Shown here one piece after another: positions 8,485-33,499 of a stretch of DNA of 64,000 bases (position 1 is the first letter of the stretch; every line of letters starts with the position of its first letter). Source of the stretch: an uncultured Eubacterium sp. (GTDB taxonomy: Bacteria; Bacillota; Clostridia; Lachnospirales; Lachnospiraceae); NCBI GenBank assembly GCA_910579075.1, contig CAJTSV010000001.1, forward strand, positions 11,304 through 75,303, written 5' to 3'. A program made the position numbers and the translations under genes. The notes under the pieces were generated by a model. That model was not told the DNA's origin and ran no database searches. It saw only the letters and a list, made by a program, of their open reading frames with translations.

Positions 8485-8496
8485 GTGAACCTTCTC

Positions 8497-13027: not shown

Positions 13028-14344
13028 TCAGAGTCCTTTCACTGCTTCTAATACATCCTTTATCTGTACCGCTATTTCGGCATCTCCAATCAAAAGACGT
13101 TCAAACTGGTTTTCCGCCTTTTTACTCTGCATATCATAATAAGCTTTATCTTCTACATATCGTTTTATAATTGCTGGATATTGTGAAATATCATCACACT
13201 GAAAATCTTCCCCTGCACAGGAGACTATATCTCCTGTTTTTAAGCACACTACTGGTTTCCCCTCATTCATTGCAGCGACACCAGCCCCTCCATTCCCAAG
13301 TCCTGGTGTCGCTGCAAGCAAATCTATCAATGCGACTGCTTCTGCAAATTCTTCCTGCCTGCCTAAAAAGCGTAAACGCTCTTTACACTTTACATGTTCA
13401 GCTACCTTTTTCTCAAATACTTCAACAGTTCTTCCAATAAAAATCAGCCAAATATCTTTTACGGTATGTAAATGCACAATCTGCTTTAATACATCCAAAA
13501 ATGATTCTGTACAATCACTTTGAAGCCGGTTACCTATAATACCAATACAAAATGCATTTTCTGGAATATCAAAGCAGTCTCTTTTTAATTTTCCTTTAGA
13601 CTTTTGATAAGATTTAAGCCCGATATTAATGTCCCGGATTATAACATGATGTTCTAATAAAAATTGTTTATCCTCTTTATAAAGTTCTGATGCCCGTTTA
13701 AAATAATTTACCACCATATCAGCGGGAATCCCTGGATACCCTTCACTAAACTGAGTATACAGCATAGGCGTAAATTGTTTCATTGCACCTGCAAACGCTG
13801 GCATGCCGCCAAAACACCAGACACAGTACGGCTTTTTCTGATATAAATAATTCATTAACTGTTTCATTTCCTGAATATTTTCCTGATTCAGCATTATCTG
13901 ATATCCACGATATGTAACTTCTTTTTTTTGAAGTGTAAATTCTCCTGTCAGCCTTTCATCATAATCCATCTCATAACATTGAAATCCCATGCTCATGCAC
14001 TTGGTCATATCTGATGTTTTAATCTCCAAAATTAAAAATACCTCTTTGTTAAGATATTTTCTAATTATTTTGCAGATTTCCAGTATAATCCGGCTGGGTG
14101 CATGTCTTTCAGATAATAACTGCGTTGCAGCTACAACAATAAAATCCGAATTCCTTTCACATACAGGAATCCTTTTATATTCGATTTTCAGCATCTTCTG
14201 CATGGTTTGTATAAAATATTCAGCGTGATTCCAATTCTCTGTAATTGCTATTTTTTTCCCATTCAAAAAGCAAACACTTGAGTACTGATTTCTTAATAAC
14301 AGACACTGAAAGAAATCCTGTTTACTGCCCAGTGCTTCACACAA
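13028..14344 (-). CDS. C-terminal half (GT-B domain) of a split FlmG-like TPR-glycosyltransferase
   Basis: Collinear with aa 475-912 of 15861..18599 (IGIIGNRLQSDCTESFLDVL..LLAATPGLGNGGAGVAAMNEGKPVVCL). The ORF-track start is a TTG. The frame is open upstream as far as the poly-G tract. Confidence 0.6.
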   Translation of the reverse strand: MCEALGSKQDFFQCLLLRNQYSSVCFLNGKKIAITENWNHAEYFIQTMQKMLKIEYKRIPVCERNSDFIVVAATQLLSERHAPSRIILEICKIIRKYLNKEVFLILEIKTSDMTKCMSMGFQCYEMDYDERLTGEFTLQKKEVTYRGYQIMLNQENIQEMKQLMNYLYQKKPYCVWCFGGMPAFAGAMKQFTPMLYTQFSEGYPGIPADMVVNYFKRASELYKEDKQFLLEHHVIIRDINIGLKSYQKSKGKLKRDCFDIPENAFCIGIIGNRLQSDCTESFLDVLKQIVHLHTVKDIWLIFIGRTVEVFEKKVAEHVKCKERLRFLGRQEEFAEAVALIDLLAATPGLGNGGAGVAAMNEGKPVVCLKTGDIVSCAGEDFQCDDISQYPAIIKRYVEDKAYYDMQSKKAENQFERLLIGDAEIAVQIKDVLEAVKGL

Positions 14345-14493
14345 TAATCCGTAAACATGTGCCAGTTCATCCTCTTTTCTATTCTTCTTGTATGCCGTTT
14401 CTATTTTTGCATATTCTTTTAAAATGTGTACATATCGATAATCTAAAAATGCATTATTCTGTTCTGTATTTCTCAGATTATCTATACACGGTT

Positions 14494-15771
14494 CTACCCC
14501 CCCCGCTTCCAGAAAGGCAGTTTCATTACAGCATAATCAGAATACATGCACATTACCATTGCTATACAAATATGCAGATGCCCTGCCAAGGATAAATTCC
14601 CCTTTATTTCCTTTATCTCTTGAAAATCACAAATACTGCGATACAAATTCATATTATAGGTAATACCCGTCAGGTAATTAATCTTTGCTACCGCAGAAAC
14701 TGCTTCATATCCTTTCTCATATATCCTGTTAGATAATATAACAGCATCTTCCCCATATCCCGATTCTAAAAATACACCGCATGTTAAATGCGATTTTATA
14801 AAATTTAAATACTCGCCCAATTGTTCCCACAGCATAATATCACAGCCATTTATGAGTATGGCAAAATTCCCCCATGCAGACTCTAAAAGTTTAAATATGC
14901 CTTGTTCACAGCTTTGTTCTTTCTCCAGATTGCAGACACGTATTCTGGAATCTTTGATTTGTTTATATTCTTCTGTTTTACGGCAAAGAATGACAAATTC
15001 TATCTCACTGTCATATGGGCACTGCAATAACTGAATTACATTCTGTATAGCAGTATTTTTATCAGATAAGTCAATAATACAAACTGATAAAAATATATTA
15101 TTATGTTCAGGCATTAATTGCGTTATCCTTTTTTGATGAAAAACATTTATCATATTCCAATACTTATTTTTATTTTCAGTTACCATCTGCTTTGGAAGAT
15201 AGAATTCATTATATTCTTCAAAATATATTTTCATATATCTATCATCTGGGAAAACAATTATATTTTCAAGATATAACTCACTAAAACGAGGCAGTTTGAA
15301 AAAAGAAGCAAACTGGGGTTCCAGCATTTCATTTAATAACAGATATACTGTATTCCAGCTTGTTTCTTTTAAATCTGGTATAATCTGCCTGATATCCCAA
15401 ATATCTGTATATAAAATGCTATCAAATTCAACATTTTCTCCCTGAATCGGATTTTTTTCGAGAAGGAATACGCCTTCAAATTCTTTTGTTTTTGAATTAA
15501 ATACAAAAAACTGTTCTTCACTGACAGGTATAAAGTCTATCGCACATGCCTCATAAGCAAGCCGGGTAAATCCAAGATTATTATGTTCATAATTTCGCTT
15601 AAATTCTTCCTCATTTGGCATTATAAAGCAATCGTACAAAATATTTAAAATCTTTTCTTTCTCGTATTCCAGCTCATATGCCTGAATAAAAGCATGAACA
15701 GCTTGTTCATATTGATTCAGTTCAAAAAAGAGAATCCCTTGATTAAAATATAATTCTCCAGCATTTCCCAT
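14494..15771 (-). CDS. N-terminal half (TPR-like + degenerate GT-A-like region) of the same split gene
   Basis: Collinear with aa 1-425 of 15861..18599 (MGNAGELYFNQGILFFELNQYEQAV against MNKGESFFKQGIQFFESEQYEQAV). Terminates immediately after the G8 tract. Confidence 0.6.
   Translation of the reverse strand: MGNAGELYFNQGILFFELNQYEQAVHAFIQAYELEYEKEKILNILYDCFIMPNEEEFKRNYEHNNLGFTRLAYEACAIDFIPVSEEQFFVFNSKTKEFEGVFLLEKNPIQGENVEFDSILYTDIWDIRQIIPDLKETSWNTVYLLLNEMLEPQFASFFKLPRFSELYLENIIVFPDDRYMKIYFEEYNEFYLPKQMVTENKNKYWNMINVFHQKRITQLMPEHNNIFLSVCIIDLSDKNTAIQNVIQLLQCPYDSEIEFVILCRKTEEYKQIKDSRIRVCNLEKEQSCEQGIFKLLESAWGNFAILINGCDIMLWEQLGEYLNFIKSHLTCGVFLESGYGEDAVILSNRIYEKGYEAVSAVAKINYLTGITYNMNLYRSICDFQEIKEIKGNLSLAGHLHICIAMVMCMYSDYAVMKLPFWKRGG
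14497..14504 (-). repeat. poly-C(8) on plus strand / poly-G(8) on the coding strand
   Basis: Read directly: gttcta-cccccccc-gcttcc. Confidence 0.95.
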
Positions 15772-15860
15772 TCAGCCACCCCACCATACCTGTATTTGTA
15801 ATCTATCCTGTTACCAGCATATTGTCATACATCCTGACACTCCTGACTTTATTGCCATCT

Positions 15861-18599
15861 TTATGTTTCTTTCACCATTTCCAGCACATTCTTTATCTGT
15901 ACAGCTATTTCTTCATCTTGAACCAAGAGACTTTCAAACTGCTTTTGTACCTTTTTACTCTGCATTTCATAATAGTCTTCATCTTCTATGTATCGTCTTA
16001 TCATTTCTGGATATTGAGTAATATCGCCACACTGGAAATCATCGCCTGTACAGGCAGCTATATCACCTGAATTTAAACAAACCACTGGTTTGCCTTCATT
16101 CATTGCTGTCACACCAGCGCCTCCATTTCCAAGTCCCGGTGTTGCTGCAAGCAAATCTATCAATGCAACAGCTTCTGCAAATTCCTTCTGATATCCTATA
16201 AACCGAAGCTGTTCACTTTCTGTAACATATTCTGCCACTTTTTTCTCAAATGCTTCGCTTGTTTCTCCAATAAAAATCAGGCAGATTTTTTTTGCTGTAT
16301 GTATTTGTACAATTTTCTTCAGCACATTCAAAAATGCATCTGTGCAGTCACTGTGAAGTCGATTTCCCGCAATCCCTATGCAAAATGCATCCTCTGGAAT
16401 ATCAAAGCTGCTCCGTTTCAGCTTGCCTGATGATTTTTGATAGGAATTCATCCCTATATTAATATCCTGAATAATAACATTATGTTCTAGTAAAAAATTT
16501 TTTTCTTCTGGATATGACGCAGCAGCCCGTTCAAAATAATTAACCACAATATCCGTGACAAATCCAGGATAGCCTTCATTAAATTGGGTATAAACCATAG
16601 TCGTAAACTGTCTCATAGCACCTGCAAAAGCCGGAATACCACCAAAGCACCAGACACAATACGGCTTTTTTTGATACAAATGCTGCATAACCTGCTTCAT
16701 TTCCCTGATATTCTGATGTGCAAGTATTACCTGATATCCATAATAGGTATCTCCATTATATGGATATCCAAAATTTCCTGTCAGCGTTTTTGTATAATTT
16801 ACTTCATGCCCGAAGAACCCTAAATCCCAGCATTTTTCTTCTTCTGTAACTGTAATCTCAATCATCAGAAATACTTGTTTCTGAAGGTATTTTTCAATCA
16901 GCCTGCAAATTTCCAATATAATTCTTGTCGGTGCATGTCTGACCGACAGCAGCTGCGCTGCCGCTATCACTATAAAATCAGCATTCCGTTCCTGTAATGG
17001 TATTTTAGAATAATTCATATTCAGTGTTTCCTGCATAGCCTGCATAAAGTATGCAGAATGATTCCAAACATCCTCTATATGCGGCCTTATGCCATTCATA
17101 AAACAACGGCCCATATACTGCTGCTTTAAAAGCAGACACTCAAATAAATCATTCTTTTTCATAACTGCACCAGATAATAAATCATAAATATAATCCAGCT
17201 CATTCTTACCATTTCTTAATTCCATGTTTCTCTTATATACTTCTGGCAAAATATTCCTGCTTCGGAATTCCAAAAATGCCTTTTTCTGTTTCTCTAAAAT
17301 TTCATCCTTTCTTTCATGCAAAGATTCCTTTGATTTTGTTTTCCACAATAACATCCCCGTAGTCGCACAGCTGGAAAATCTGCATAACAATGTTGCTATG
17401 CAAATATGTGTATATTCTTCCAGTAACCGATTTTCCTTCACCTTATCCATAAAATCCAGGCTGCTGATGCTGCGAAATAATTTCATGTTATATGTAATTC
17501 CCGTTAAATATTGCTGCTCTGACAAAGCACGCAAGGCATCATATCCCTTTGCACTTTCTTTTTCAGGCAGCCTGGAAAATATTTCTCCATCTCCTGATTC
17601 CAGAAATACACCGCTTACTGCATGCGCTTTAATAAAACTTAAATATTTTTCCAGTTCATCAACAATCATACTGTCGGTTTCGTACATGAAAACCGCATAC
17701 TGGCCCTGCACCAGTTCCAGCGCTTTCCATATTGCTGATGCATATCCATCTCCATTTTCCAACTCGCAAAAGCGGACTCTGGCATCCTTTATCTGTTCAT
17801 ATTCTTTCGGTCTGTTCTGCAATATAAGAATCTCAATTTCACTATCATAAGGACATTTTAATAACTGCAAGGCATTCTGCACAGCCACTGAATGATTCCT
17901 GAAGCTTAAAATACAAATAGACAAAAAGATATTTTTCCGGTCTGTATCAATATTTTTTACGCGGTTCTCATGCAATCTGTGAATCTGGTTCAGATACTTT
18001 GCCGTTTGATTTGTAACGAGCTGTTTCGGCAGGTAAAATTCCTCATATTCTTCAAAAAAAATCTGCATGTATTTTTCGTTCGGGAATACAACCACATTTT
18101 CCAGATACAATTCATGAAAATGTGGCAGCTTAAAAAAAGAAGCAAATTTCGCCTCCTGCCCGTTTAATAATATATAAACAGTCCCCCAGTAATTTTCATG
18201 CAAATCTGGCAGTATCTGACGAATATCCCATATATCTGTATAAAGAATACTATCAAACCGTACATTTGTACCGCGGACAGGCTTATCTTCTAATTCAATC
18301 AAGCCTTCAAATTTCGCTTCTTCCCGATTAAAAATATAAAAACAAACATCACTCACAGGTATAAAATCCAGCATGCATTCTTCATAAGCAATCCTGGTAT
18401 GCGCAGCGCTGTTGTATTTATAATTATTTCGAAATTCCTGTTCATTCGGGATAATAAAGCAATTATATAAAATATCCAGTATATGCTCTTTCTCATAACT
18501 ATGTTCATATGCCTGAACCAAACATGCTACAGCCTGTTCATATTGTTCTGATTCAAAAAACTGTATTCCTTGCTTAAAAAAACTCTCCCCTTTATTCAT
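15861..18599 (-). CDS. 912-aa multidomain protein: TPR-like N-terminus, degenerate GT-A-like middle, GT-B (GT41-like) C-terminus; candidate FlmG-type flagellin glycosyltransferase
   Basis: Intact version of the 14494..15771 + 13028..14344 pair. The start overlaps the pseC stop by 8 nt. Confidence 0.6.
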   Translation of the reverse strand: MNKGESFFKQGIQFFESEQYEQAVACLVQAYEHSYEKEHILDILYNCFIIPNEQEFRNNYKYNSAAHTRIAYEECMLDFIPVSDVCFYIFNREEAKFEGLIELEDKPVRGTNVRFDSILYTDIWDIRQILPDLHENYWGTVYILLNGQEAKFASFFKLPHFHELYLENVVVFPNEKYMQIFFEEYEEFYLPKQLVTNQTAKYLNQIHRLHENRVKNIDTDRKNIFLSICILSFRNHSVAVQNALQLLKCPYDSEIEILILQNRPKEYEQIKDARVRFCELENGDGYASAIWKALELVQGQYAVFMYETDSMIVDELEKYLSFIKAHAVSGVFLESGDGEIFSRLPEKESAKGYDALRALSEQQYLTGITYNMKLFRSISSLDFMDKVKENRLLEEYTHICIATLLCRFSSCATTGMLLWKTKSKESLHERKDEILEKQKKAFLEFRSRNILPEVYKRNMELRNGKNELDYIYDLLSGAVMKKNDLFECLLLKQQYMGRCFMNGIRPHIEDVWNHSAYFMQAMQETLNMNYSKIPLQERNADFIVIAAAQLLSVRHAPTRIILEICRLIEKYLQKQVFLMIEITVTEEEKCWDLGFFGHEVNYTKTLTGNFGYPYNGDTYYGYQVILAHQNIREMKQVMQHLYQKKPYCVWCFGGIPAFAGAMRQFTTMVYTQFNEGYPGFVTDIVVNYFERAAASYPEEKNFLLEHNVIIQDINIGMNSYQKSSGKLKRSSFDIPEDAFCIGIAGNRLHSDCTDAFLNVLKKIVQIHTAKKICLIFIGETSEAFEKKVAEYVTESEQLRFIGYQKEFAEAVALIDLLAATPGLGNGGAGVTAMNEGKPVVCLNSGDIAACTGDDFQCGDITQYPEMIRRYIEDEDYYEMQSKKVQKQFESLLVQDEEIAVQIKNVLEMVKET

Positions 18600-19713
18600 A
18601 TATGATATCCTTTAAATGCTCTATAACATAATCCTGCTGATTATCTGTCAATTCTGCAAATAATGGCAGACTGATTATATGTTCGTATAGCTTTTCTGCT
18701 TCCTGACAGCAGATATGCTGATATCCATGTTCCTGATAATAAGGGTGCTGATAAACTGGTATATAATTTACATTTACCTGAATTCCGGCATTTCTCAATC
18801 TATCAAAGACTTTCTTTCTGTTCTGAACCTGTATCACATATAAATGCCAGCTGTTATTGCATCCTTTTTCCTGATATGGGCATGTAATGGCTTCGATATC
18901 GCGAAACGCATCCTCATATCGTTTTACCAGTTCCTTTCTTCTTATAATAAACTTGTCCAGTTTCCGCATCTGAGACACACCAAGCGCACACTGTATATCT
19001 GTAATCCGGTAATTATAACCTAAATCCACCTGCTGATAATACCAGCCGCCTTCATTTTTCGTCATCAGGCCTTCTTCTCGCGTAATCCCATGGCTGCGGA
19101 ATAATTTCAGCTTTTCGTACAGCTTCTTATCATTTGTAGTTATCATTCCGCCTTCTCCCGTTGTAATATGCTTTACCGGATGGAAACTGAATGTCGTCAT
19201 ATCTGAAATTGTCCCTATTTTTCTGCCTTTGTAATCAGCCCCCAGCGCATGTGCCGCATCCTCAATCACTGTAAGATGATGCTCTTTTGCAATTGCATGA
19301 ATCTCATCCATATCACATGGCTGGCCTGTATAATGCACTGCTATAATTGCTTTTGTTTTTTTTGTTATTTTTTTCCGGATATCTGACGGGTCAATATTAT
19401 AAGTATCTGGCCTGATATCAGCAAAAACAGGCATACCCCCGCAATACAGCACACAATTTGCAGATGCTGCAAAAGTCATCGGTGTTGTAATAACCTCATC
19501 TCCGTCCTTAATACCCGCTGCAAAACAGGCAGCATGTAATGCTGCCGTCCCATTCGCAATTGCAACTGCATATTTTGCACCAGTGTACTCACACACAGCT
19601 TTTTCAAATTCACAAACTGCCGGCCCTGTTGTAAGGTAATCACTTTGCAGTATTTCTGCTACTGCCTGTATATCATCCTCATCTATCCATTGCTTTCCAT
19701 ATGGTATAATCAT
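18592..19713 (-). CDS. pseC: UDP-4-amino-4,6-dideoxy-N-acetyl-beta-L-altrosamine transaminase
   Basis: N-terminal signature IPYGKQWIDEDDIQAV..LQSDYLTTGP, then FSFHPVKHITTGEGG. Sits among pse genes. Confidence 0.85.
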   Translation of the reverse strand: MIIPYGKQWIDEDDIQAVAEILQSDYLTTGPAVCEFEKAVCEYTGAKYAVAIANGTAALHAACFAAGIKDGDEVITTPMTFAASANCVLYCGGMPVFADIRPDTYNIDPSDIRKKITKKTKAIIAVHYTGQPCDMDEIHAIAKEHHLTVIEDAAHALGADYKGRKIGTISDMTTFSFHPVKHITTGEGGMITTNDKKLYEKLKLFRSHGITREEGLMTKNEGGWYYQQVDLGYNYRITDIQCALGVSQMRKLDKFIIRRKELVKRYEDAFRDIEAITCPYQEKGCNNSWHLYVIQVQNRKKVFDRLRNAGIQVNVNYIPVYQHPYYQEHGYQHICCQEAEKLYEHIISLPLFAELTDNQQDYVIEHLKDIIYE

Positions 19714-19800
19714 TCTCTGATACCTGCCTCTATGTTATATTCCTTTCTTTCACAATCATTGCATTTCTTGCCTTAGTGTCTTTGCATTTCATTTAACAAC

Positions 19801-20829
19801 TCAGTTATGTTTACTGTTACAATTCATCCCTATTAACTCTTTCGCAATTCTCGCCGCCCCGCCACCATCTACCAGTTCCTGCATTCCCCTGATGCGCTGT
19901 TCCCTTAGTTCATACTGCTGCTCATACTGTTCAAGCACCAATGCAGCTTTCTCAGATACATCCTCAAAACGTATATCTCCAAGATAATCCATTAATCCAT
20001 CCTGTGCAAACTGACGTACATTATCCAGCTGATTATCTGCAAAAGAATATGTTATCGTCGGTGTCCCACAGGCGCAAAGCTCATATAGTGTTGTTCCACC
20101 AGCGGATATTGCTGCATCTGCCCTCAGCATATAATCTTTTATGTCATTGACAGATTTATGAATATGAATATTTCTATTCTGGCCATATTCCCGACTCAGC
20201 TGTTCATAATCAGTGCAATATGTCCCGCAAATCACATCAACTGCCTTATATTTGCTGCAATTAAGCCTTTTCAGAAATTGTGGCAATATATGAAATTTAT
20301 CGCTGCCACCCGACATTAACAGAATATTTTCCAGCCGGCTTTTAACCTCATTTCTTTTCAGTCCATGAAAATCTTTTCTAAGGGGAACATACTGTGTTCC
20401 AAGCAAAAGTTTTGTTTCTTTATAGTTCTGACTATATTTAAATTTCTGCCAATAATTCGCATAACAAATCAGAATATGAACTGGATACACAAACGTATTT
20501 CTATCATCTATATATGCAGTTTTTGTCCATTTTGCCAAAGCCTGAAGGTAACTTTTTGTTACCATATAACTGTCTATCAGCAAGGCTTTAATTCTCTTTT
20601 CCTGAATTACCTGATACAATGCATCCAATTCAGAATCCATATCATCCCATTTTGTATGTAGCACGACAGCCTGATATCCTCTCTCCTGAATCAATCCAAG
20701 CGCCTCGCTGTCTGCCAGAATAAACGTAACATCCTCGCCCAGACTGGCCGCTGCATCCGCAATCGAAAGACATCTCATCATGTGTCCGGTAGCAATCGAC
20801 GGATTCATATCCGTTCTTATATATAACAT
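19801..20829 (-). CDS. pseG: UDP-2,4-diacetamido-2,4,6-trideoxy-beta-L-altropyranose hydrolase
   Basis: YIRTDMNPSIATGHMMRCLSIADA N-terminus and GT28/MurG-like C-terminus (SAGGTTLYELCACGTPTI). Neighbours are pseC and pseH. Confidence 0.75.
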   Translation of the reverse strand: MLYIRTDMNPSIATGHMMRCLSIADAAASLGEDVTFILADSEALGLIQERGYQAVVLHTKWDDMDSELDALYQVIQEKRIKALLIDSYMVTKSYLQALAKWTKTAYIDDRNTFVYPVHILICYANYWQKFKYSQNYKETKLLLGTQYVPLRKDFHGLKRNEVKSRLENILLMSGGSDKFHILPQFLKRLNCSKYKAVDVICGTYCTDYEQLSREYGQNRNIHIHKSVNDIKDYMLRADAAISAGGTTLYELCACGTPTITYSFADNQLDNVRQFAQDGLMDYLGDIRFEDVSEKAALVLEQYEQQYELREQRIRGMQELVDGGGAARIAKELIGMNCNSKHN

Positions 20830-20853
20830 GTTCTACCCTCAAAAAGTCTCTAT

Positions 20854-21543
20854 TTAAGAAAAAATCTCCATTCTATAATATTGCTCTTTATATCCCATTT
20901 CAATGTTTTTATATCTTCTAAGAAAATCTCCTATATTATCATTCCAGCTAAATTTTATTTTTTCTTTCAGCATATCCAGTTCTTTTTTGACATGACAGCT
21001 TCCTTTTCCTGCCTGCTCTGTTAATGAATAACAGCCATCTTTCATTTCATCCCATTTTTCCTTCATTAATTCCACAATTTCTTTATTCAATTTGTCATAA
21101 GTGGTCTGTAATGTTTCCTTCTCAATGTCAAAAAAACACTGTTTTTGATACAATATTTTTCCAGTATCGAGTCCTTCATTTACCTGATGTATGGTTACTC
21201 CTTTTGGCGTGTCATCAATAAAACTCCATATATTTGGATTGGAACCGCGATTCCATGGCAGAAATGAAATGTGGAGGTTCCAGATTCTCCCATTCATATA
21301 TTCTATCAGTTCTCTGCTAATCAGGTATTTATAATTATAGCTGATAATAAAATCCGGCTTCAGATTCTGCAACTGGCACATCAGCAAGCGTTCACTATAT
21401 ATATGAACTGTTTCACGCTGTTTCAGCCAATGATACAAATCCAGAGAGTTACTGTTATTCGTTAAAAATAATACCCCCCCCCGAATTTGTTTCCAGTGTT
21501 TTAGATATAGCGCCACAGGCATCTGTTTCAATTTCATATACAT
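20854..21543 (-). CDS. formyltransferase-family domain protein; its own start is doubtful and it may be the C-terminal half of a GNAT-formyltransferase fusion
   Basis: Formyl_trans_N-like pattern: VLFLTNNSNSLDLYHWL, FIISYNYKYLI, NLHISFLPWNRG, HQVNEGLDTG. All in-frame ATGs lie inside the upstream GNAT gene and lack an RBS. Confidence 0.6.
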   Translation of the reverse strand: MYMKLKQMPVALYLKHWKQIRGGVLFLTNNSNSLDLYHWLKQRETVHIYSERLLMCQLQNLKPDFIISYNYKYLISRELIEYMNGRIWNLHISFLPWNRGSNPNIWSFIDDTPKGVTIHQVNEGLDTGKILYQKQCFFDIEKETLQTTYDKLNKEIVELMKEKWDEMKDGCYSLTEQAGKGSCHVKKELDMLKEKIKFSWNDNIGDFLRRYKNIEMGYKEQYYRMEIFS

Positions 21544-21952
21544 TGCATTTGTACGTATATCCTGTATCTAAAAACACTTTTTGGGAAGCGATATTATCCG
21601 GTTTCACTTTTGCAATCAGTTTCTTTACTCCTGGAAAATCCTTCTGTACCTGTACTTGAAGAAGCCCAACCATTTCTTTGGCATACCCCATGCACCTTTT
21701 TTCAACACAGATACTGTAACTAATCTCAGCTGTATCTCCACTGACAGTAATTCGTATCTGTCCAACTGGTTCATCTTCCATATAAATATACTGTTTCGCA
21801 TCCTTGCGCACCAGCATATTGTCAAACCACTTTATGTGCTCCTCATATGTTATCTCCGCAGAGGAAAATGCATTTTTCCTGACAGTACTTTCATTTGCCC
21901 AATGAAATAATAAATCCGCGTCTTCCTGTACGGCATCTCTCAAATAACCCAT
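21455..21952 (-). CDS. pseH: GNAT N-acetyltransferase, PseH-like
   Basis: GNAT fold (DLLFHWANESTVRKNAF, CVEKRCMGYAKEMV). Located between the Pse-associated methylase and pseG. Ends 6 codons after a G9 tract. Confidence 0.6.
   Translation of the reverse strand: MGYLRDAVQEDADLLFHWANESTVRKNAFSSAEITYEEHIKWFDNMLVRKDAKQYIYMEDEPVGQIRITVSGDTAEISYSICVEKRCMGYAKEMVGLLQVQVQKDFPGVKKLIAKVKPDNIASQKVFLDTGYTYKCNVYEIETDACGAISKTLETNSGGGIIFNE
21474..21482 (-). repeat. poly-C(9) on plus strand / poly-G(9) on the coding strand
   Basis: Read directly: aata-ccccccccc-gaattt. Confidence 0.95.
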
Positions 21953-22028
21953 AACGTAATCTCCAGTTTCTATTTCATCCTGTCCAGTCTTTCCGAATCA
22001 GCGGCATGCCCTTGCTGCTCTCACTGGC

Positions 22029-22658
22029 TTATCTTTTTTCAAGCAGGAACCAGGTAGAATCGTCCTGTGGGAAATGATAATCCCTGTGATAATTAAATTT
22101 ATAATCAACAAGTGCTGTATCTGGGTATTTATCCATAAATTCACCCGCAAAATCGCGCTTAAAAAGCCTGTCCGAATTACCGCGGTATTGTACCGTAACC
22201 GGAGTCGGGTTATAATATTCTGCAATACAGATATACCGTTTGGAAGATTCATATAATTTACGATAAACCTCCTGCAGTTCATCCGGATTTATATGAATTA
22301 ACACCCCTTTTATCAGTACAAAATCAAACTGCTTTTCTGGTTCATATTCTAATATAGACTGTTCATATACCTGTATCTCATGGTTAAAAAATGCATCATT
22401 CTTTAAAATCTCAGCTGCTTTATGGTTAATCTCAATCGCAGAACATGCAATTTGTGGAACCAATGTTTTAATAGCTTTTAAATTCATTCCAATATTAGAA
22501 CCAAATTCTATGACTGAATCTATTTTATTCATTCTCTGAATAATTTCTGAAAAAACACCAATATTACCTGCCAGCAGCTGTGTACTGTCGTTTCTTTCAA
22601 TATATGCATCTCCAAATTCGCCACTCCAAAATTCTTCCTGTTCTGTTTTATATGCCAT
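22029..22658 (-). CDS. pseudaminic acid biosynthesis-associated methylase
   Basis: The N-terminus (EEFWSGEFGDAYIERN) and SAM motif (VIEFGSNIGMNL) fit that family as I remember it. Adjacent to pseB. Confidence 0.65.
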   Translation of the reverse strand: MAYKTEQEEFWSGEFGDAYIERNDSTQLLAGNIGVFSEIIQRMNKIDSVIEFGSNIGMNLKAIKTLVPQIACSAIEINHKAAEILKNDAFFNHEIQVYEQSILEYEPEKQFDFVLIKGVLIHINPDELQEVYRKLYESSKRYICIAEYYNPTPVTVQYRGNSDRLFKRDFAGEFMDKYPDTALVDYKFNYHRDYHFPQDDSTWFLLEKR

Positions 22659-22790
22659 TTTTCATTCTCCTTTATAACCTGTCCATATTGAATTATATTC
22701 TGCTTGTTTTAACTTTTTATATTTGAATAGTTCCTTTTCGTAATTGCCTGCATTTCACTTCACAACGTATACAGGTTAATTTGTCCATTT

Positions 22791-23786
22791 TCAATGGTTC
22801 AAATCCATATTGGCAAGCAGTCCCTGAAGCTGTTCTACACTCAGCCATTCTGTATTTGTTCCTGAACTATATTCAAAACCATCCTCTACTTTTTTTCCGC
22901 CCGGAATAATCCGGTCTTCTCCCCACCAGTTATAATGCGGATATACAATATAATGCTTCTCATATTCATAAGTCATAGCAGAATCTTCCCGCGTAACCAT
23001 TACCTCGTGCAGCTTTTCACCTTCACGGATTCCCACCTCCGGCATCTCGCATCCTGGCTGAATCGCCTGGGCCAAATCCGTAATTTTAAAAGAAGGTATT
23101 TTGGATATAAACGTTTCCCCGCCCCGTGCTTCTTCCAAAGCTTTGATAACAAGCCGGACTCCTTCTGCCAGGCTAATCCAGAATCTTGTCATACGGTAAT
23201 CTGTAATTGGCAGTTTATCCCCGCCATTTTTTACGATGTTCTGAAAAAATGGGATGACAGACCCACGGCTCCCTGCTACGTTTCCATACCGGACAATAGA
23301 GAACCGTACATCTTTGGTACCGGAATAAGCATTTGCTGCTACAAATAATTTGTCGGATACAAGCTTCGTGCCGCCATAAAGATTAATCGGATTCACGGCC
23401 TTATCCGTAGAAAGTGCTACTACGCGCTTTACCCCGCAATCCAGTGCTGCATCTGCAATATTCATTGCTCCATTAATATTTGTTTTAACCGCTTCCATTG
23501 GATTATATTCACATGCCGGCACCTGCTTTAATGCTGCTGCATGTATTACATAATCTACACCGTCAAATGCACGATACAAACGTTCCTTATCCCTCACATC
23601 TCCGATAAAAAAACGTAGTTTATCTTTATACTGATTAAATTTTCCCGCCATATGAAACTGCTTAAATTCATCTCTGGAATAGATAATAATTTTTCGAGGG
23701 TTGTAATTTGACAACGCATATTCTGTAAATGCGTTTCCAAATGAACCTGTCCCACCAGTTACTAATATTGTTTTTCCGTTTAACAT
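22791..23786 (-). CDS. pseB: UDP-N-acetylglucosamine 4,6-dehydratase (inverting)
   Basis: ILVTGGTGSFGNAF, YSRDEFKQ, HAAALKQVP, STDKAVNPINLYGGTKL. 331 aa. Confidence 0.9.
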   Translation of the reverse strand: MLNGKTILVTGGTGSFGNAFTEYALSNYNPRKIIIYSRDEFKQFHMAGKFNQYKDKLRFFIGDVRDKERLYRAFDGVDYVIHAAALKQVPACEYNPMEAVKTNINGAMNIADAALDCGVKRVVALSTDKAVNPINLYGGTKLVSDKLFVAANAYSGTKDVRFSIVRYGNVAGSRGSVIPFFQNIVKNGGDKLPITDYRMTRFWISLAEGVRLVIKALEEARGGETFISKIPSFKITDLAQAIQPGCEMPEVGIREGEKLHEVMVTREDSAMTYEYEKHYIVYPHYNWWGEDRIIPGGKKVEDGFEYSSGTNTEWLSVEQLQGLLANMDLNH

Positions 23787-23804
23787 CTTAATGCCTCCTG
23801 TTAA

Positions 23805-25661
23805 TTAATGAATTTCAAGCAGTGTTTCTTCTGCAAATTCTTTGAGTATCTGTGCACACTGCTGCAGCAGTTTTGCATACTTCATGCCCTGTTTTGATAT
23901 GGCTTTTCCTTCTTCTTCAATCGAATCCAGTGAAAACAGGCTTTCACTTTTGACAATAAGTTCACCAACCGTCATTGTCGAAGACACAATCTGGTACATA
24001 CTGTTTCTTTCGCACGTTTTTGTCATTTTCTTAACTTTTTTTAACAGTTTTTCATAATCTGCCCGGTTCATGTTTCTGGCCCTGCACATTAAATTTATCT
24101 TGTGGTAAGCGGTATAGAGCTTTTTCGCATCACGGTAAATATATGCGAACTGCTCTGGAATCGAATGCAGATATTCTACAACTTTATCACGTTCATCATT
24201 TATAAATTCTGGTTTTACATTTTGAATACATTCCTCAAAATTAATTTCTTCCTTTGGACACGTTGCTTCAATTGCATCACGCAGAGGCATTACCTCTGTT
24301 CCTTCAATATATGCTCCCCCAGCCGTTGCATTAATCACCCTGACATTTGGCCGGTGTTCTTTCATCCCTTTAATATGTGCTTCAAACCACTCTAAATACA
24401 TTTTCAAATTGCCAAGTGTTGGCAGTTCTTCTTCGTAATTTCCTTTTACCCGTATCATTCCATCTGTATTTTCTTCTGGCATTACATCTTTAAACGTGCC
24501 GTCTGCGTGAGAACGGTTATCTGTATATGCCAAATCCTGTCCTACCAGAATAATCGTATCAAATCCCATTTTATAGAGCAGTGAAAGACAAGTACATGCA
24601 ACAGACCCGCCGCTTGACAGAGATGGCAGTATCCTTCCAATAGCTGTATATGCATAATAAGCTAAGACATGACCGTCTGAATAAAAAAATTTCTTTCCCC
24701 TCTGTTCTTGCAGAATATCTGAATTAGCAGTAGCAGACGCAATAATTGGAATGTCTTTCGCCTCATCTGCCTGAACCAAATCCAGCGGTTTCATAGGATC
24801 AATTGTACAGAATGCATCAGGATGGATTCCCGCTCGAAGCAGTGGCTTCATCGCTGTATCGACTGCAAGGATAAAAGCCCTGTTTTTTGCTGCCTTCAGC
24901 TCCTGTATATTTTTATTTAAAGAAGGACCAGCTGCCACCAAAATTGCGGGCCTGTCATGAGGTACTGTCTGCATCAGGCATTTTACATGATATCCTTCAC
25001 ATAAATATTTCATATTTGCCATCTGGTTACGCGCCATATAAGTCGAAAAATTAACGCCTGTCATCTGATTTGAGACTACAAATTCTTCTCTTTTCTGAAT
25101 CAGCTTTGTTTTTTCAAACACTTTATCATAAAACAGTTCCTGGTAATTCGGATGAATTACCACTTTTAAGAACATCCTGTTTTCAAAAGACAATATTCTA
25201 CGGCATGCTGTGTCAAATGCAGCCTCATTCAACCCTTCCACTACAAAAATAATCGGACGATTTTCTATTTCACTGGATAAATCTACTTCGTTCAGCATTT
25301 GAAGAAAAATGGAAAGAGATGGCTCATATACAACAACAGCAACCGTCTTGTCCGATTCTTTTATCAGACGTTTTAAGTATATCCCGCTGCCTGTTCCAAG
25401 CAAAAAAACAGGAGCATATTTATGAATTTCTCCGAGATGCTCCATCCAGATATCTGCCGGTTCCCTGGCATTTCTTTTCCCATTCAGATACAAAAGACGT
25501 TCTCCCTGTTTCACCCGGAAAATTAATTCCCCATCCTGAGAAACCTCTTTTATAATTTCTAATTCATCTAATTTATAATCACCATTTCTCAGCTGTTCTG
25601 CAAACGCTGGATACCATTTTTCCATTGCCATTAAATTGCCATCCAATATTTCTTTACTCAT
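23805..25661 (-). CDS. maf: motility accessory factor (Maf, DUF115/MptE-like) putative flagellin pseudaminyl transferase
   Basis: Core AILVAAGPSLNKNIQELKAAKNRAFILAVDTAMKPLLRAGIHPDAFCTIDP. I prefer the start at 25661 (GGGGTGGA RBS; the ATG overlaps the upstream stop as ATGAGTAA). The ORF track starts at 25682. Confidence 0.8.
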   Translation of the reverse strand: MSKEILDGNLMAMEKWYPAFAEQLRNGDYKLDELEIIKEVSQDGELIFRVKQGERLLYLNGKRNAREPADIWMEHLGEIHKYAPVFLLGTGSGIYLKRLIKESDKTVAVVVYEPSLSIFLQMLNEVDLSSEIENRPIIFVVEGLNEAAFDTACRRILSFENRMFLKVVIHPNYQELFYDKVFEKTKLIQKREEFVVSNQMTGVNFSTYMARNQMANMKYLCEGYHVKCLMQTVPHDRPAILVAAGPSLNKNIQELKAAKNRAFILAVDTAMKPLLRAGIHPDAFCTIDPMKPLDLVQADEAKDIPIIASATANSDILQEQRGKKFFYSDGHVLAYYAYTAIGRILPSLSSGGSVACTCLSLLYKMGFDTIILVGQDLAYTDNRSHADGTFKDVMPEENTDGMIRVKGNYEEELPTLGNLKMYLEWFEAHIKGMKEHRPNVRVINATAGGAYIEGTEVMPLRDAIEATCPKEEINFEECIQNVKPEFINDERDKVVEYLHSIPEQFAYIYRDAKKLYTAYHKINLMCRARNMNRADYEKLLKKVKKMTKTCERNSMYQIVSSTMTVGELIVKSESLFSLDSIEEEGKAISKQGMKYAKLLQQCAQILKEFAEETLLEIH

Positions 25662-25992
25662 TCTTTGCATCCACCCCGTCATTTTCTTCTGTGATGAATA
25701 TATCCAACAATTCCCTCAAACCAAAGTCCAGCGTATCTATCATAAGCACCAAGTCTCTCTGACGCACTGCTTCCATGTAATCATTTAGAACATGCAGTAT
25801 ATAGTCCTGCAAACCTCTGCTTTCTTCCGTCTGCTCGCCCTCACTGATTCCCTGTATCATGGCAGAAGCAAACTGCTGAATCTGTCCTGCCAGTTTTTCT
25901 CCCTCCGTAACTGCGTCAAATTTATGCAGAAAATAATAATTAATGCAAATTATTCCGATTTTATCAGCCAGATTTTTTGCCAATACTTCCAT
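25654..25992 (-). CDS. hypothetical small acidic protein (112 aa), translationally coupled to maf
   Basis: First ORF after the fliC terminator. Its stop overlaps the maf start. Confidence 0.5.
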   Translation of the reverse strand: MEVLAKNLADKIGIICINYYFLHKFDAVTEGEKLAGQIQQFASAMIQGISEGEQTEESRGLQDYILHVLNDYMEAVRQRDLVLMIDTLDFGLRELLDIFITEENDGVDAKNE

Positions 25993-26023
25993 ATATTACA
26001 GCTCCCGCTTTTCATCTTTTATT

Positions 26024-26057
26024 CAAAAAAACAGAGGTACGATACCTCGTACCTCTG
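26024..26057 (-). terminator. rho-independent terminator of the flagellin gene
   Basis: Perfect 11-bp stem cagaggtacga/tcgtacctctg with a 4-nt loop. On the minus strand it is followed by TTTTTTT. Confidence 0.8.
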
Positions 26058-26096
26058 CAATTTTGTATTCCAATTCTATTTAACAGTATAATCAGA

Positions 26097-27299
26097 TTAC
26101 CCTAACAGAGATAATACGCCCTGTGTACTCTGATTAGCCTGTGCAAGCATTGACTGTCCAGCCTGTGCAAGAATATTATTCTTGCTGTACTCAACCATTT
26201 CAGAAGCCATATCTGTATCACGAATACGGGATTCTGCTGACTGTGTATTCTCAGCTACGTTATCAAGGTTTGCAATTGTATGCTCTAATCTGTTCTGGAT
26301 AGCACCAAGTGCTGACCTCTGGGAAGACACCTTGTTAATAGCATCCTGAATAGCATCAATAGAAGCGTTTGCAACCTGATAGTTATCTACGCCAACCATA
26401 CCTTTTGCAGTATATCCGCTCAACTGCACACCAGATGTAACCTTTGTCTCAAGGAAATCTGCAAAATTTGTTTTCAGGTCTTCTTCTGCCTTATCCATAG
26501 CAATGCTGAAATCTGCTGCTGCAACACTTGCTGATGTTCCAAATCTCTGGTTTGTCAGTTTGCCAATAAAATATACACTGCCTGTATCTGTATCAAACTG
26601 TGCAGCGTAAGTAGAAGCACGGTAAATAGAAGTGCCAAAGCGAAGGCTGATGCTTCCTAAAACTGCAGATATATTAGCACCTTTAGACAAACCTGTACTA
26701 TATATATGACTGGTACCTTTATACCTAACAACAGTAGGACCATTGCCATGCTGAATATCGCCTGCATACTCTTTATTAATTGTCTTTAATCCCAATGTCT
26801 GAGCATTCATGTTGCCGATACTGATACGAATCTTCTGATTTGAGTTTGCGCCAACCTGAAGGTTCTTGTTTGTAAATGTACCATCCAGCAAGTTCTGCTT
26901 ATTGAACTGTGTTGTCTGAGAAATTCTGTCTAATTCAGCTGTTAAAGCAGATAACTCCTGATTAATAGCATCGCGGTCGATTTCTTCGTTTGTATCGTTA
27001 GCACCCTGAACTGCCAGTTCATTCATACGCTGTAAGATAGAATGAGCTTCATTTAAAGCACCTTCAGCTGTCTGGATAAGAGATACACCATCCTGTGCAT
27101 TGGAAGAAGCTTTGTTTAAGCCGCGAACCTGGCTTCTCATTTTTTCAGAAATCTTTAAGCCTGCTGCATCATCGCCCGCACGGTTGATTCTGTAACCAGA
27201 AGATAACTTTTCAGAAGATTTAGCCTGTGAACCAGTTGTAACGCCTAACTGACGGTTAGCGTTCATAGCTGTGAGATTATGCTGTACTACCATTGCCAT
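26097..27299 (-). CDS. fliC: flagellin
   Basis: MAMVVQHNLTAMNANRQLG..SSEKLSSGYRINRAGDDAAGL..SLIQTAEGAL N-terminus. C-terminus is ..NILAQAGQSMLAQANQSTQGVLSLLG. The central region is S/T-rich. Confidence 0.95.
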   Translation of the reverse strand: MAMVVQHNLTAMNANRQLGVTTGSQAKSSEKLSSGYRINRAGDDAAGLKISEKMRSQVRGLNKASSNAQDGVSLIQTAEGALNEAHSILQRMNELAVQGANDTNEEIDRDAINQELSALTAELDRISQTTQFNKQNLLDGTFTNKNLQVGANSNQKIRISIGNMNAQTLGLKTINKEYAGDIQHGNGPTVVRYKGTSHIYSTGLSKGANISAVLGSISLRFGTSIYRASTYAAQFDTDTGSVYFIGKLTNQRFGTSASVAAADFSIAMDKAEEDLKTNFADFLETKVTSGVQLSGYTAKGMVGVDNYQVANASIDAIQDAINKVSSQRSALGAIQNRLEHTIANLDNVAENTQSAESRIRDTDMASEMVEYSKNNILAQAGQSMLAQANQSTQGVLSLLG

Positions 27300-27307
27300 A
27301 ATAATTT

Positions 27308-27339
27308 TCCTCCTTGAATTTACTGCATCGTCCCTGATG
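27308..27339 (-). promoter_or_regulatory. fliC leader: hairpin presenting AGGGA in its loop, plus a GGAGG Shine-Dalgarno (putative CsrA binding sites)
   Basis: Minus-strand text gcatcAGGGAcgatgc (27324..27339), about 10 nt upstream of caAGGAGGa. fliW and csrA are encoded in the same window. Confidence 0.5.
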
Positions 27340-27435
27340 CAAATTTGTTATTTTGATTTCGATAGAACTCTGGCAAGCCGTACGCACCTGTCTGAAATCC
27401 TATCATTTTAAGTAATGTTGTTTTACTTGTATTAT

Positions 27436-27462
27436 ATATCGGACGCATGGGCAGATACTTTA
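27436..27462 (-). promoter_or_regulatory. sigma-28 (SigD/FliA)-type promoter of fliC
   Basis: Minus strand reads TAAA-16 nt-CCGATAT, about 135 nt upstream of the ATG. Confidence 0.7.
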
Positions 27463-27514
27463 TAGCCATCTTAAAATTTTTTAAAGGTTTTATTTAGTCT
27501 CCTGCCAGCTTCTG

Positions 27515-28175
27515 TTATTTATCACAGCGCCGCAAAACAGGAACCAGATTTTTATATGTAATTTCCAGCCTTTCCCATCTTCCATCAATAACTACAGAAT
27601 CTGGCAGTAATAAATTCTGCGCCTCAGAAAATGGCGTCATATCTGCCACCATTTGAAATAATTTAATCAAATCTGCTCCCAGTCCATGTTCTGCATGCTT
27701 AAATATGTTTCCATCCACATCATCTGGCCACACAGTTATCAGCGCTGCCCTGTTTCCTAATGTGTTGAAAAACTGTTTCTTTTCACCATTTCCTGCATAA
27801 CGCCCATATCATTGCAATCCAGCCAGCTTTCTCCAGTATCAATATCTGCCTGAATCTCATCTTTACCACTCAGCATCTGTCCATCAACAATTTGTTCCAG
27901 TTTTTCTTCAAAATTCTGCATATACTGGATGCCAAAATAATCGCACTGCAAGACGGCCATATTATATTCATCTGCAAACTGAGTCCTCATTTTATGATAC
28001 ACTCTCGAATCAATACAGTCTCCATACCCGGGAATCAGACACAAAATACCTGTCTTGGCATTGATTCCCATCTCTGGAATGCTAAACACAACACGAAGCC
28101 TACGCTGCTTATTACCCCCCCCGGAACATATATGCTGTCCTGAGCAGAAATAAACACTTCCATTTCACTTGCCAT
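27515..28175 (-). pseudogene. decayed alpha/beta-hydrolase-like gene, possibly DUF2920-like, with a 5' poly-G tract and a second frameshift
   Basis: RBS AGGAGA + ATG at 28175 gives MASEMEVFISAQDSIYVPGG. After the G8 tract the frame switches to GNKQRRLRVVFSIPEMGINAKTGILCLIPGYGD (ORF 27757..28089). A further shift near 27760 leads into ORF 27515..27733 (..DVDGNIFKHAEHGLGADLIKLF..). Total length is only about 215 codons. Confidence 0.55.
28115..28122 (-). repeat. poly-C(8) on plus strand / poly-G(8) on the coding strand
   Basis: Read directly: atta-cccccccc-ggaaca. Confidence 0.95.
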
Positions 28176-28292
28176 AATCTGTCTCCTGAATTTCACTTAC
28201 TGTAAAATGCACCTGCTTCACTAAATTATTTTAATTGTTTTATATAATACATTTTTTCAGCTATCAGGCCGTACATGCTGCCAGCTGCTGCA

Positions 28293-29339
28293 TTACTCTG
28301 CATATTTCCATTCCATCGGAGTCCCTTTTGGAATATCACACCGTGCTCTCTGCCCAAGTACATTTTCATAATATTTTGTATGCATCCCAATCCCTGGCCT
28401 GATTGATTTCAGATTGGATTCTGAAAATACATCCCCTTTTTTCATATCCTGCGCCACAAATAAGGAACGTGAATTTTTGCGGCTTTTGACTTGTTCTTCA
28501 TTCAGCTCATACGTCACTCTGCCTAATGCCCGTTCTGTGTTTCTGATTTTTCTTACCATCTGTCCAAATTCTTCAGGCTCCATGGAAAAAGCCGCATCCG
28601 GTCCGCCGTCACTGCGTTTTAATGTCAGATGCTTTTCCACCATCTTTGCTCCAAGCGCAACTCCTGCAATCGCCGTTTCGTCCCCCAGCGAATGATCCGA
28701 CAGCCCTGTGATACAGCCAAATGTCTGACCCATATTTGATATTACTTTTAAATTCATATTTTCATAAGGTGCCGGATACGCAGAAACACATTTTAACAGA
28801 ATGACATTCTCATTCTGTTCCTGCCGGCAGGTCCTGAGTGCTAAATCAATGTCTTCCAGATAAGCAATCCCTGTTGATATAATGACGGGCTTGCCAGTTT
28901 TTGCTATTTTTTTTATAAATGGAATGTCATTAATTTCAAATGACGCCACTTTATAAGCCGGAACTTCCAGCTTTTCCAGAAAGTCAATGGCAGTCAAATC
29001 AAAAGGAGACGAAAAGCAGCCGATTCCCCTTGCTTTTGCATGCTGCATCAATTCCTCGTGCCATTCCCATGGCGTATATGCCTTTTGATACAGCTCATAT
29101 AACGTCTGTCCTTTCCAAAGGCCTCTTGCCTGAAAATACTCAGCGCTGCCATTCATCGTAATTGTGTCCGGTGTGTATGTCTGTAATTTTACTGCATCTG
29201 CCCCCGCATCTGCCGCCGCATCGACAATTTCTTTCGCCCTGTTCAAATCCATTTTATGATTTGCCGACATTTCAGCAACAATATATACGGGCCCGTTCTC
29301 TGTAATTACGTGATTTCCTATCTTTATTTCTTTGTTCAA
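28293..29339 (-). CDS. pseI: pseudaminic acid synthase (NeuB family)
   Basis: VYIVAEMSANHKMDLNRAKEIVDAAADAGADAVKLQTY, with a C-terminal SAF/antifreeze-like domain. Next to pseF. Confidence 0.85.
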   Translation of the reverse strand: MNKEIKIGNHVITENGPVYIVAEMSANHKMDLNRAKEIVDAAADAGADAVKLQTYTPDTITMNGSAEYFQARGLWKGQTLYELYQKAYTPWEWHEELMQHAKARGIGCFSSPFDLTAIDFLEKLEVPAYKVASFEINDIPFIKKIAKTGKPVIISTGIAYLEDIDLALRTCRQEQNENVILLKCVSAYPAPYENMNLKVISNMGQTFGCITGLSDHSLGDETAIAGVALGAKMVEKHLTLKRSDGGPDAAFSMEPEEFGQMVRKIRNTERALGRVTYELNEEQVKSRKNSRSLFVAQDMKKGDVFSESNLKSIRPGIGMHTKYYENVLGQRARCDIPKGTPMEWKYAE

Positions 29340-29379
29340 ATTGTTTCCCTCTCTTATTTTGTAATGCTGCCTGCACTTT

Positions 29380-30084: not shown

Positions 30085-30237
30085 TTACACCTGTTCCCCT
30101 CATCCTTTCACATTGGTGCATCAGCATTCCTGTATTTCCAGTTGATGCTGGTTTGCACAAGATTCATCTGGCAGTTTTATGCTACTACCATTCCAGCAGC
30201 TTGTCAATTATATATTCTATTTTCTTCAGAAAGCATC

Positions 30238-30897: not shown

Positions 30898-30964
30898 TCT
30901 AATTTCCTCCCTAATGAATCTGTTCTTAATTTTATTTCCACAAATGTATTCTGCATCTTTTCCA

Positions 30965-33081: not shown

Positions 33082-33313
33082 TCTGCCCCTCCCCCTATCA
33101 AAAATGCATTTATGCCAGCACATATTCTTTTTTCTTTCATAATTTAATGATGTACACTCCCTGTTTTTTCTTCCTAAATTTGCATATATATTTTTCACAA
33201 CTCTTTCCTTGCTCGTTCTATGCATTTCTTAAATAAACATTTACATGCTGTGATGTTTACAATTAAACCTAAATAAACTCGTAATCTTAACTACAGCATC
33301 GAATTTATAATCA

Positions 33314-33455: not shown

Positions 33456-33499
33456 AGAGAATTTCAAACATATACAAATGTATATGTATATCACTATAA

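Follow-up and report, generated by a model that had tools for sequence, protein, structure and literature searches.

In Campylobacter and a few other Gram-negative pathogens, phase variation of the flagellar glycans through sequence repeats is textbook knowledge. Among the main targets of host antibody and TLR5 responses are the flagellins of gut bacteria of the Lachnospiraceae type. The closest known system to the one described here is the flagellar glycosylation locus of Campylobacter jejuni, in which maf genes, Cj1295 and members of the DUF2920 ('617') family, cj1305c among them, are switched by poly-G tracts (PMC3068675, PMC7099621, PMC6321876, PMC8355987). In the analysis of a 64,000-nucleotide stretch of contig CAJTSV010000001.1 from an uncultured Eubacterium sp. 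of the Lachnospiraceae (the whole stretch is hereafter called the window), three long poly-G tracts, T1, T2 and T3, were found in a flagellin glycosylation island of the pseudaminic-acid type. They very probably act as phase-variable contingency loci, in which changes of tract length toggle the reading frame.

An earlier reading of the window, made from its letters alone (the sequence-only reading), had put forward this interpretation, which is now strongly supported at the DNA level by insertions and deletions confined to the tracts on near-identical contigs. Literature searches gave no account of flagellin glycosylation undergoing repeat-driven phase variation in the Lachnospiraceae or elsewhere in the Clostridia; a 2025 review lists inversion systems for Clostridioides only, and a 2026 survey of flagellar pseudaminic acid in Clostridium raises phase variation by analogy only (PMC13317340). 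Poly-G switching of flagellin glycosylation genes thus appears to be undescribed for gut Clostridia, though switching of this kind is known in Campylobacter.

Three poly-G tracts at reading-frame breaks

A regex scan revealed three G/C runs of at least 7 nt within the window, C8 at 14497–14504, C9 at 21474–21482 and C8 at 28115–28122, which are the same runs, at the same positions, as those listed in the sequence-only reading. The minus strand holds nearly all genes of the window, so that each run reads as G in the coding direction, and analysis of open reading frames (ORFs) placed each of them at a reading-frame break; the ORFs and in-silico edits of tract length agree with the frame switches proposed earlier. 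The longest G run on the plus strand is 4 nt; after the three tracts, G/C runs reach 6 nt at most, with one C6 at 5105 and another at 11628. The former had been named before as the next longest and is indeed present and in frame, but the latter had been overlooked. The tracts and the genes that carry them are as follows.

14497–14504, minus strand: T1 poly-G tract; G8 in the window (OFF), G9 is ON
13028–15771, minus strand: T1 gene, a glycosyltransferase of 914 aa when repaired, comprising TPR, GT2-like and GT4-like (Glyco_trans_1_4) regions (Pfam)
15861–18599, minus strand: intact T1 paralog, 912 aa, without a tract
21474–21482, minus strand: T2 poly-G tract; G9 in the window (OFF), G8 and G11 are ON
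20854–21952, minus strand: T2 gene, a PseH-like GNAT N-acetyltransferase (residues 4–132) followed by a PseJ-type sugar N-formyltransferase (from residue 158) (Pfam Acetyltransf_3, Formyl_trans_N)
28115–28122, minus strand: T3 poly-G tract; G8 in the window (OFF), G9 is ON
27515–28175, minus strand: T3 gene, remnant of a DUF2920-family alpha/beta-hydrolase-like gene, with a 5′ part from the ATG at 28175 and a 3′ fragment at 27515–27733

The plus strand is skewed in composition (C 25% (24–25%) vs G 17%), and the G+C content of the island was measured as 33–42%, which replaces the earlier figure of roughly one-third. Because C makes up 24–25% of the plus strand through this skew, the earlier estimate of 0.17^8 per position understates the chance expectation. 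Analytic estimates by order-0 to order-2 models or empirical run-length decay gave 0.09–0.92 expected C runs of at least 8 nt per window, and the probability of three or more was 1e-4 to 0.066, depending on the model; three such runs by chance are still unlikely after correction for strand skew, as the sequence-only reading had held. Moreover, no G/C run of at least 7 nt was present in the window outside the island (31 kb, 44–53% G+C) or, in the same organism, in ~8.75 kb past the left and ~9.7 kb past the right end of the window. The three tracts fall within one 13.6-kb stretch, and the remaining ~69 kb examined are free of them; as a background, ~250 kb of unrelated GNAT-containing loci recovered by a metagenome-contig scan held one run of at least 8 nt.

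In T1, a TAG stop immediately follows the G8 tract and ends the product at 425 aa, so that the gene appears as a 425-aa N-terminal ORF (14494–15771) and a 438-aa C-terminal ORF (13028–14344) in another frame. In-silico repair to G9 gave a protein of 914 aa and repair to G6 one of 913 aa, the tract coding for residues 423–425 between the two glycosyltransferase regions. The repaired protein aligned end to end with the intact paralog at 57% identity and continuously through the junction, the residues at the tract site being RGGVEP in T1 vs TKSKES in the paralog, which indicates that the full-length (G9) form is a real gene. The 412-aa members of the T1 protein cluster were considered as contig breaks at the tract, that is, as signs of within-sample heterogeneity, and rejected, since the C-terminal ORF had been called from another start codon.

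In T2, the ORFs 21455–21952 and 20854–21543 overlap at the tract, which encodes Gly-Gly at the start of the formyltransferase domain. G8 and G11 gave fusion proteins of 365 and 366 aa, respectively, and G9 left a 165-aa GNAT alone in frame. The best solved-structure match of the C-terminal domain was PseJ (PDB 6ci2, E=5.6e-35), the enzyme that completes the Pse5Ac7Fo pathway (PMC11040635). The NLHISFLPWNRG motif is retained in this domain, aligned to the conserved HxSxLPxxRG-type motif of PseJ, and against the formylation domain of linear gramicidin synthase the aligned region begins at residue 158, the tract-encoded glycine. The fusion family comprised 846 clusters at E<=1e-20; among the best 120 of these 846, most were fused proteins of 340–385 aa, which indicates that the fused form is the functional architecture of T2. 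Nearly all members of the family read x-G-G-(G)-V-L-F-L-T-N-N at the junction, with two to four glycines, and the residue x usually has codons able to end in G. Formyltransferase-only matches of 200–236 aa were considered as split OFF forms in other species; for P0202 this was rejected, since its gene stands alone naturally, immediately follows pseI and has no tract. The metagenome-contig scan with the T2 alignment recovered only distant stand-alone GNAT genes, without tracts.

The T3 tract lies 17 codons after the ATG at 28175, in an ORF with a good ribosome-binding site; its product is 46 aa at G8 and, in silico, 139 aa at G9. Alignments revealed that the gene lacks ~135 internal residues, including the GSSHG nucleophile motif, and that the frame is broken there. 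The 139-aa fragment of the window scored 19.5 bits against DUF2920 (PF11144; Pfam cut-off 24.7). P0057, an intact allele of 349 aa that falls in the same 90% cluster and carries the PGGGNK tract too, scored 73.3 bits, and a 347-aa ortholog from a related species (L009, described below) scored 69.5 bits; on these clear matches the assignment of the T3 gene to DUF2920, with the window copy as a remnant, holds at the sequence level. No solved-structure relative of the DUF2920 protein was detectable by sequence. Since the gene has already been inactivated by the internal deletion, the T3 switch is probably vestigial and without consequence in the window lineage, and in strains with an intact DUF2920 gene it would be a true 5′ on/off switch. 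At G7 and G10, gene callers choose an alternative ATG (28124–28132, just upstream of the tract), giving a product MFRGG... that lacks the first 16 residues only. In strains with intact DUF2920, two of the three T3 frames might therefore still give a near-full-length protein.

Tract-length variation in near-identical contigs and in populations

Exact-protein look-up retrieved fourteen contigs of this organism, which come from independent samples in ENA, NCBI, JGI and Logan; one of them belongs to GCA_022797015.1 ('MAG: Eubacterium sp.', MAG being metagenome-assembled genome). They differed from the window by 40 mismatches over 245 kb aligned, 9 of the 14 having no mismatch at all. The indels were all 1-nt changes in T1, T2 or T3, the exception being a compensating pair in one Logan contig. 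Thus, 25 of 34 tract observations differed from the window, whereas in the same contigs A/T runs of 6–9 nt showed an indel in 0 of 662 observations and the C6 run varied in 0 of 13.

The states seen on contigs spanning all three tracts, given as T1/T2/T3 lengths, included 8/9/8 (the window, OFF at every tract), 8/9/9, 9/8/9, 9/9/8, 9/9/9 and 9/8/8, which represent 6 of the 8 possible on/off combinations; 9/10/- and 8/8/- were present on contigs ending before T3. All 4 combinations of T1 and T2 were observed, and the sequence-only reading's suggestion that population data be used to see whether the tracts vary independently was borne out, near-identical natural contigs showing independent lengths. 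Among related contigs, T1 was G8 or G9, T2 was G8, G9, G10 or G11, and T3 was G8, G9 or G10, the G11 state of T2 belonging to a lineage ~99% identical to the window. Apart from the tracts, nine loci from unrelated studies and sources (L001, L002, L004, L005, L041–L043, L045, L046) were 100% identical to the window over 12–21 kb; a near-clonal strain of this organism seems to be in circulation, turning up in many samples.

The distribution of lengths was further analyzed by searching a collection of 15 billion proteins for exact matches to the product of each tract length, with contigs as the unit of counting, and the following numbers of contigs were obtained.

T1: G7 3, G8 55, G9 162 (ON), G10 17, G11 4, G12 0
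T2: G7 20, G8 67 (ON), G9 162, G10 18, G11 1 (ON), G12 0
T3: G7 4, G8 30, G9 238 (ON), G10 24, G11 3, G12 1 (ON)

In this collection G6 was not found for any of the three tracts. The distributions are unimodal and bell-shaped, with the mode at G9 and tails on both sides for all three, the 914-aa form being the most frequent state of T1; such a shape fits slippage and does not fit a single ancestral frameshift or consensus error. ON/OFF/ON (T1/T2/T3) was the most common population state. The tract-free neighbours were almost monomorphic, exact sequences being present on 347 (PseG), 385 (PseI), 302 (PseB) and 249 (T1 paralog) contigs.

Tracts of this type were also found in other species. A genome-contig scan, in which the window's own species was not among the matches, found one relative, an 'uncultured Eubacterium sp.' MAG (L009). 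Its fusion protein is 63% identical to window T2 overall (67% in the best tblastn segment) and has G9 at the same GNAT/formyltransferase junction, in the split state; in this species, too, the tract is polymorphic (G7 on 6 contigs, G8 on 1, G9 on 7, G10 on 1). Two further species had a shorter, non-varying junction tract, G6 at six loci and G7 at seven, these loci having been chosen by the exact ON protein and hence being biased to invariance. In the G7 species (carrying P0118; L066–L068), a G9 run (L066, 5154–5162) lies in a DUF4910/DUF2172/HTH_47 gene adjoining pse genes; G9 gives a whole protein of 433 aa and G8 (L068) gives 205 + 227 aa, so that this is likely another contingency locus in a different species of gut Clostridia. 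In L009, a G10 run at 12810–12819 stops 3 nt short of the start codon (ATG) of a DegT/WecE-like aminotransferase gene, where a ribosome-binding site would be expected, and its length could tune translation initiation rather than the reading frame. Poly-G tracts are thus a recurrent feature of the nonulosonate/flagellin glycosylation loci of several related gut Clostridia.

Phase variation weighed against gene decay and homopolymer error

Three features that mark a contingency locus were seen here, namely an intragenic homopolymer of at least ~7 nt, a one-unit toggle between full-length and truncated products (in silico), and length polymorphism among near-identical genomes with indels almost exclusively in the tracts. 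Presumably, slipped-strand mispairing during replication leads to gain or loss of one G. Moreover, ON and OFF states lie on identical haplotypes, from which we infer that the variation in tract length is reversible.

An unlikely alternative is that the tracts are merely mutational hot spots on the way to one-way gene decay, G-runs that arose from GGG-GGG glycine codons slipping often and the frameshifts representing pseudogenization rather than a reversible adaptive switch. A deletion has already reduced the T3 gene to a remnant, none of the three tracts is ON in the window genome, tracts with an ON mode and with an OFF mode have similar length distributions, and other decayed genes lie nearby (a probably truncated DegT-like gene at 608–1261 and BCCT fragments past the left end of the window), all of which would suit such decay. 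Yet the OFF alleles carry no secondary lesions, the downstream frames being intact in 14 of 14 contigs, and the presence of both states on identical haplotypes points to recurrent changes in both directions. G10 and G11 occur besides G7 and G8, and a second species, with a fusion protein 63% identical to that of the window, has retained a T2 tract of mutable length at this junction. The confinement of all three tracts to 13.6 kb also speaks against decay.

It is far less probable still that the variation is an artefact of sequencing or assembly, the true tracts being in frame and constant and the plus-or-minus-one calls being platform errors. Homopolymers of 8–9 nt are error-prone on several platforms, and many of the supporting contigs come from low-coverage metagenome assemblies; however, the A/T runs of the same contigs were invariant, each state within one base of the G9 mode was found on 17–238 contigs from different sources and assemblers, and non-modal states made up 20–40% of contigs, far above a consensus error rate. 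The T2 tract is, in addition, conserved in the second species, and even if the window calls were wrong, the tracts would remain long in-frame G-runs at these sites. The artefact that the sequence-only reading had itself named as a possible undoing of its proposal thus finds no support. Just as improbable, in our estimate, is that transcriptional slippage or ribosomal frameshifting on the G-run buffers expression and gives the full-length protein from every DNA state. Long homopolymers can promote slippage of RNA polymerase, but no frameshift stimulator was evident downstream of the tracts, where no systematic search was made, and in Campylobacter clear on/off phenotypes result from tracts of this length (PMC3068675, PMC8355987).

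Several observations nevertheless weigh against phase-variable switching. The mode of G9 is common to all tracts, whether it means ON (T1, T3) or OFF (T2), and the presumably neutral T3 remnant has a spread similar to those of T1 and T2, so that there is no sign of selection on the state and the distributions look mutation-driven. The contig counts are approximate, some re-assemblies of the same samples being included, and heterogeneity within a population, switching rate and reversibility are all deduced from differences between samples. As to the products, the GNAT domain of T2 matched the PseH equivalog weakly (39 bits, cut-off 93). The OFF state of T2 may also be leaky, since an out-of-frame ATG at 21543 opens the formyltransferase frame at G9, from which a stand-alone formyltransferase could be made; stand-alone PseJ-like enzymes exist.

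If the tracts do act as contingency loci, T1 at G9 would provide a 914-aa enzyme with GT2-like and GT4-like domains, and at G8 translation would stop at the domain boundary, so that the TPR region and GT2 half would stay, the GT4 half would be gone, and one glycosyl-transfer step would be lost. T2 at G8 or G11 would provide a PseH-like acetyltransferase fused to a PseJ-type formyltransferase, and at G9 the acetyltransferase only. Because both enzymes are expected to act on the same 4-amino group of the UDP-sugar intermediate, the T2 state would decide whether the flagellar nonulosonate is Pse5Ac7Ac only or a form or mixture including the 7-N-formyl derivative, Pse5Ac7Fo. T3 would be a former on/off switch near the 5′ end of the DUF2920 gene, vestigial in the window lineage. 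The set of up to 8 glycoforms envisaged by the sequence-only reading is therefore overstated: with the T3 gene a deletion remnant and its switch probably inconsequential, a realistic number is at most about four functional states.

Going further, poly-G switching of the nonulosonate N-acyl group (acetyl vs formyl) at the boundary of the fused PseH-like and PseJ-like domains might be a strategy conserved in several gut Clostridia and placed under a DNA-inversion master switch for the whole island, giving Campylobacter-like antigenic variation that affects anti-flagellin immunity and phage attack. We offer this wider scheme tentatively, as something possible rather than probable.

The surrounding island and comparison with described systems

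Two features upstream of the island bear on such a master switch.

33311–33458, no strand assigned: invertible segment, 114 nt, AT-rich, between 17-nt inverted repeats at 33311–33327 and 33442–33458 (repeat search and contig comparison)
33500–34126, minus strand: serine recombinase of the resolvase/invertase family (Pfam Resolvase, 100 bits)

The segment sits between the recombinase gene and the first gene of the island. In one contig (L050) it is present as the exact reverse complement with both flanks identical, and the window and six other loci share the opposite orientation; because the inversion is exact and the flanks are unchanged, 33311–33458 is a genuine invertible element (inverton). 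A promoter consensus scan of the segment found no site inside; by eye, TTTACA-N17/18-TATAAA was seen in it, reading towards the island in the window orientation. The element probably adds a further layer of control on the island. In a lineage ~99% identical to the window (L047, L049, L052; locus ~7736–8518), the recombinase is split into 115 + 97 aa and all three contigs have the window orientation, so that the inversion switch may be locked there.

The island itself comprises the following genes besides those given above.

18592–32017, minus strand: core pseudaminic-acid and flagellin block, containing T2 and T3 (NCBIfam, Pfam, source names)
18592–19713, minus strand: PseC (NCBIfam equivalog above cut-off)
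19801–20829, minus strand: PseG (NCBIfam equivalog above cut-off)
22029–22658, minus strand: methyltransferase
22791–23786, minus strand: PseB (Pfam Polysacc_synt_2 and source names)
23805–25682, minus strand: Maf-type transferase (Pfam MptE-like, 148 bits)
26097–27299, minus strand: flagellin (Pfam Flagellin_N and Flagellin_C)
28293–29339, minus strand: PseI (Pfam NeuB and source names)
29380–30084, minus strand: PseF (NCBIfam equivalog above cut-off)
30965–32017, minus strand: second PseG (NCBIfam equivalog above cut-off)

The pathway set of PseB, PseC, PseG, PseI, PseF and a PseH-like GNAT is thus represented, and the Maf-type transferase adjoins the flagellin gene. Genes for FliS, FliD, FlaG, CsrA, FliW and hook-associated proteins lie at 36–44 kb, upstream of the island on the coding strand.

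Near the left end of the window, the DegT-family aminotransferase gene at 608–1261 covers profile positions 7–191 of 360 only, its L009 ortholog being full length (378 aa), and it is probably a truncated remnant. A 503-aa glycosyltransferase (1248–2759) was present on just one other contig, which indicates that this end of the island differs between strains. An 850-aa protein with TPR and sulfatase-like domains (5468–8020) has an adjacent paralog that is split into a 125-aa ORF (5005–5382) and a 678-aa ORF (2893–4929); no homopolymer is present at the split, where the linker seems to have been deleted, and the C6 at 5105 is in frame within the 125-aa ORF. Just past window position 1 (L073, 12690–15638), a BCCT transporter gene in four fragments comes after choline-kinase-like and nucleotidyltransferase genes. 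Together with the sulfatase-like proteins, the choline-kinase-like/BCCT remnants hint at a partly decayed decoration pathway of phosphocholine type.

If the proposed switching is true, a commensal would vary its flagellar sugar coat stochastically, which bears on persistence under immune and phage pressure. The switches are documented from public metagenomes over hundreds of contigs, and one of them is found again in a second species. Where MAGs of these taxa contain 'frameshifted' glycosylation genes, these should not be dismissed as pseudogenes or assembly errors. The alternative between Pse5Ac7Ac and Pse5Ac7Fo, with a predicted mass change of ~14 Da per sugar, would provide a clean test case.

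Among described systems, the flagellar glycosylation locus of C. jejuni shares with the window intragenic G/C homopolymers of ~8–11 nt in several genes of a pseudaminic-acid flagellin island, their independent and combinatorial variation, and the presence of Maf and the Pse pathway; the two also resemble each other strikingly in that one of the tracts is in a gene of the DUF2920 family. The host here is, however, a Gram-positive, commensal-type member of the gut Clostridia and not an epsilonproteobacterial pathogen. The switched genes also differ, being a large TPR/GT2-like/GT4-like glycosyltransferase and a PseH-like/PseJ-like fusion, and Maf has no tract. Furthermore, two of the tracts here lie at domain boundaries, so that only the C-terminal domain is lost, and a DNA-inversion switch is adjacent. 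Compared with PseJ itself (PDB 6ci2, 6ci4), the T2 domain is fused behind a GNAT, and the poly-G at the point of fusion is predicted to govern its translation.

Pilin glycosylation in Neisseria, with poly-G in pgtA/pglA, is similar in that a homopolymeric tract within the gene of a glycosyltransferase turns one step in the O-glycosylation of a surface-filament protein on and off (PMC2193922), but the target there is pilin, the sugars are others, the hosts are Gram-negative pathogens, and no nonulosonic acid pathway is involved. Within Clostridia, Clostridioides difficile likewise shows a flagellum-related inversion of a short segment between inverted repeats (PMC11868660), comparable to 33311–33458 of the window, which occurs in both orientations in nature. 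Unlike that system, the inversion in the window lies upstream of a glycosylation island, has a recombinase gene of the serine type as its neighbour, and comes in addition to three repeat-based switches.

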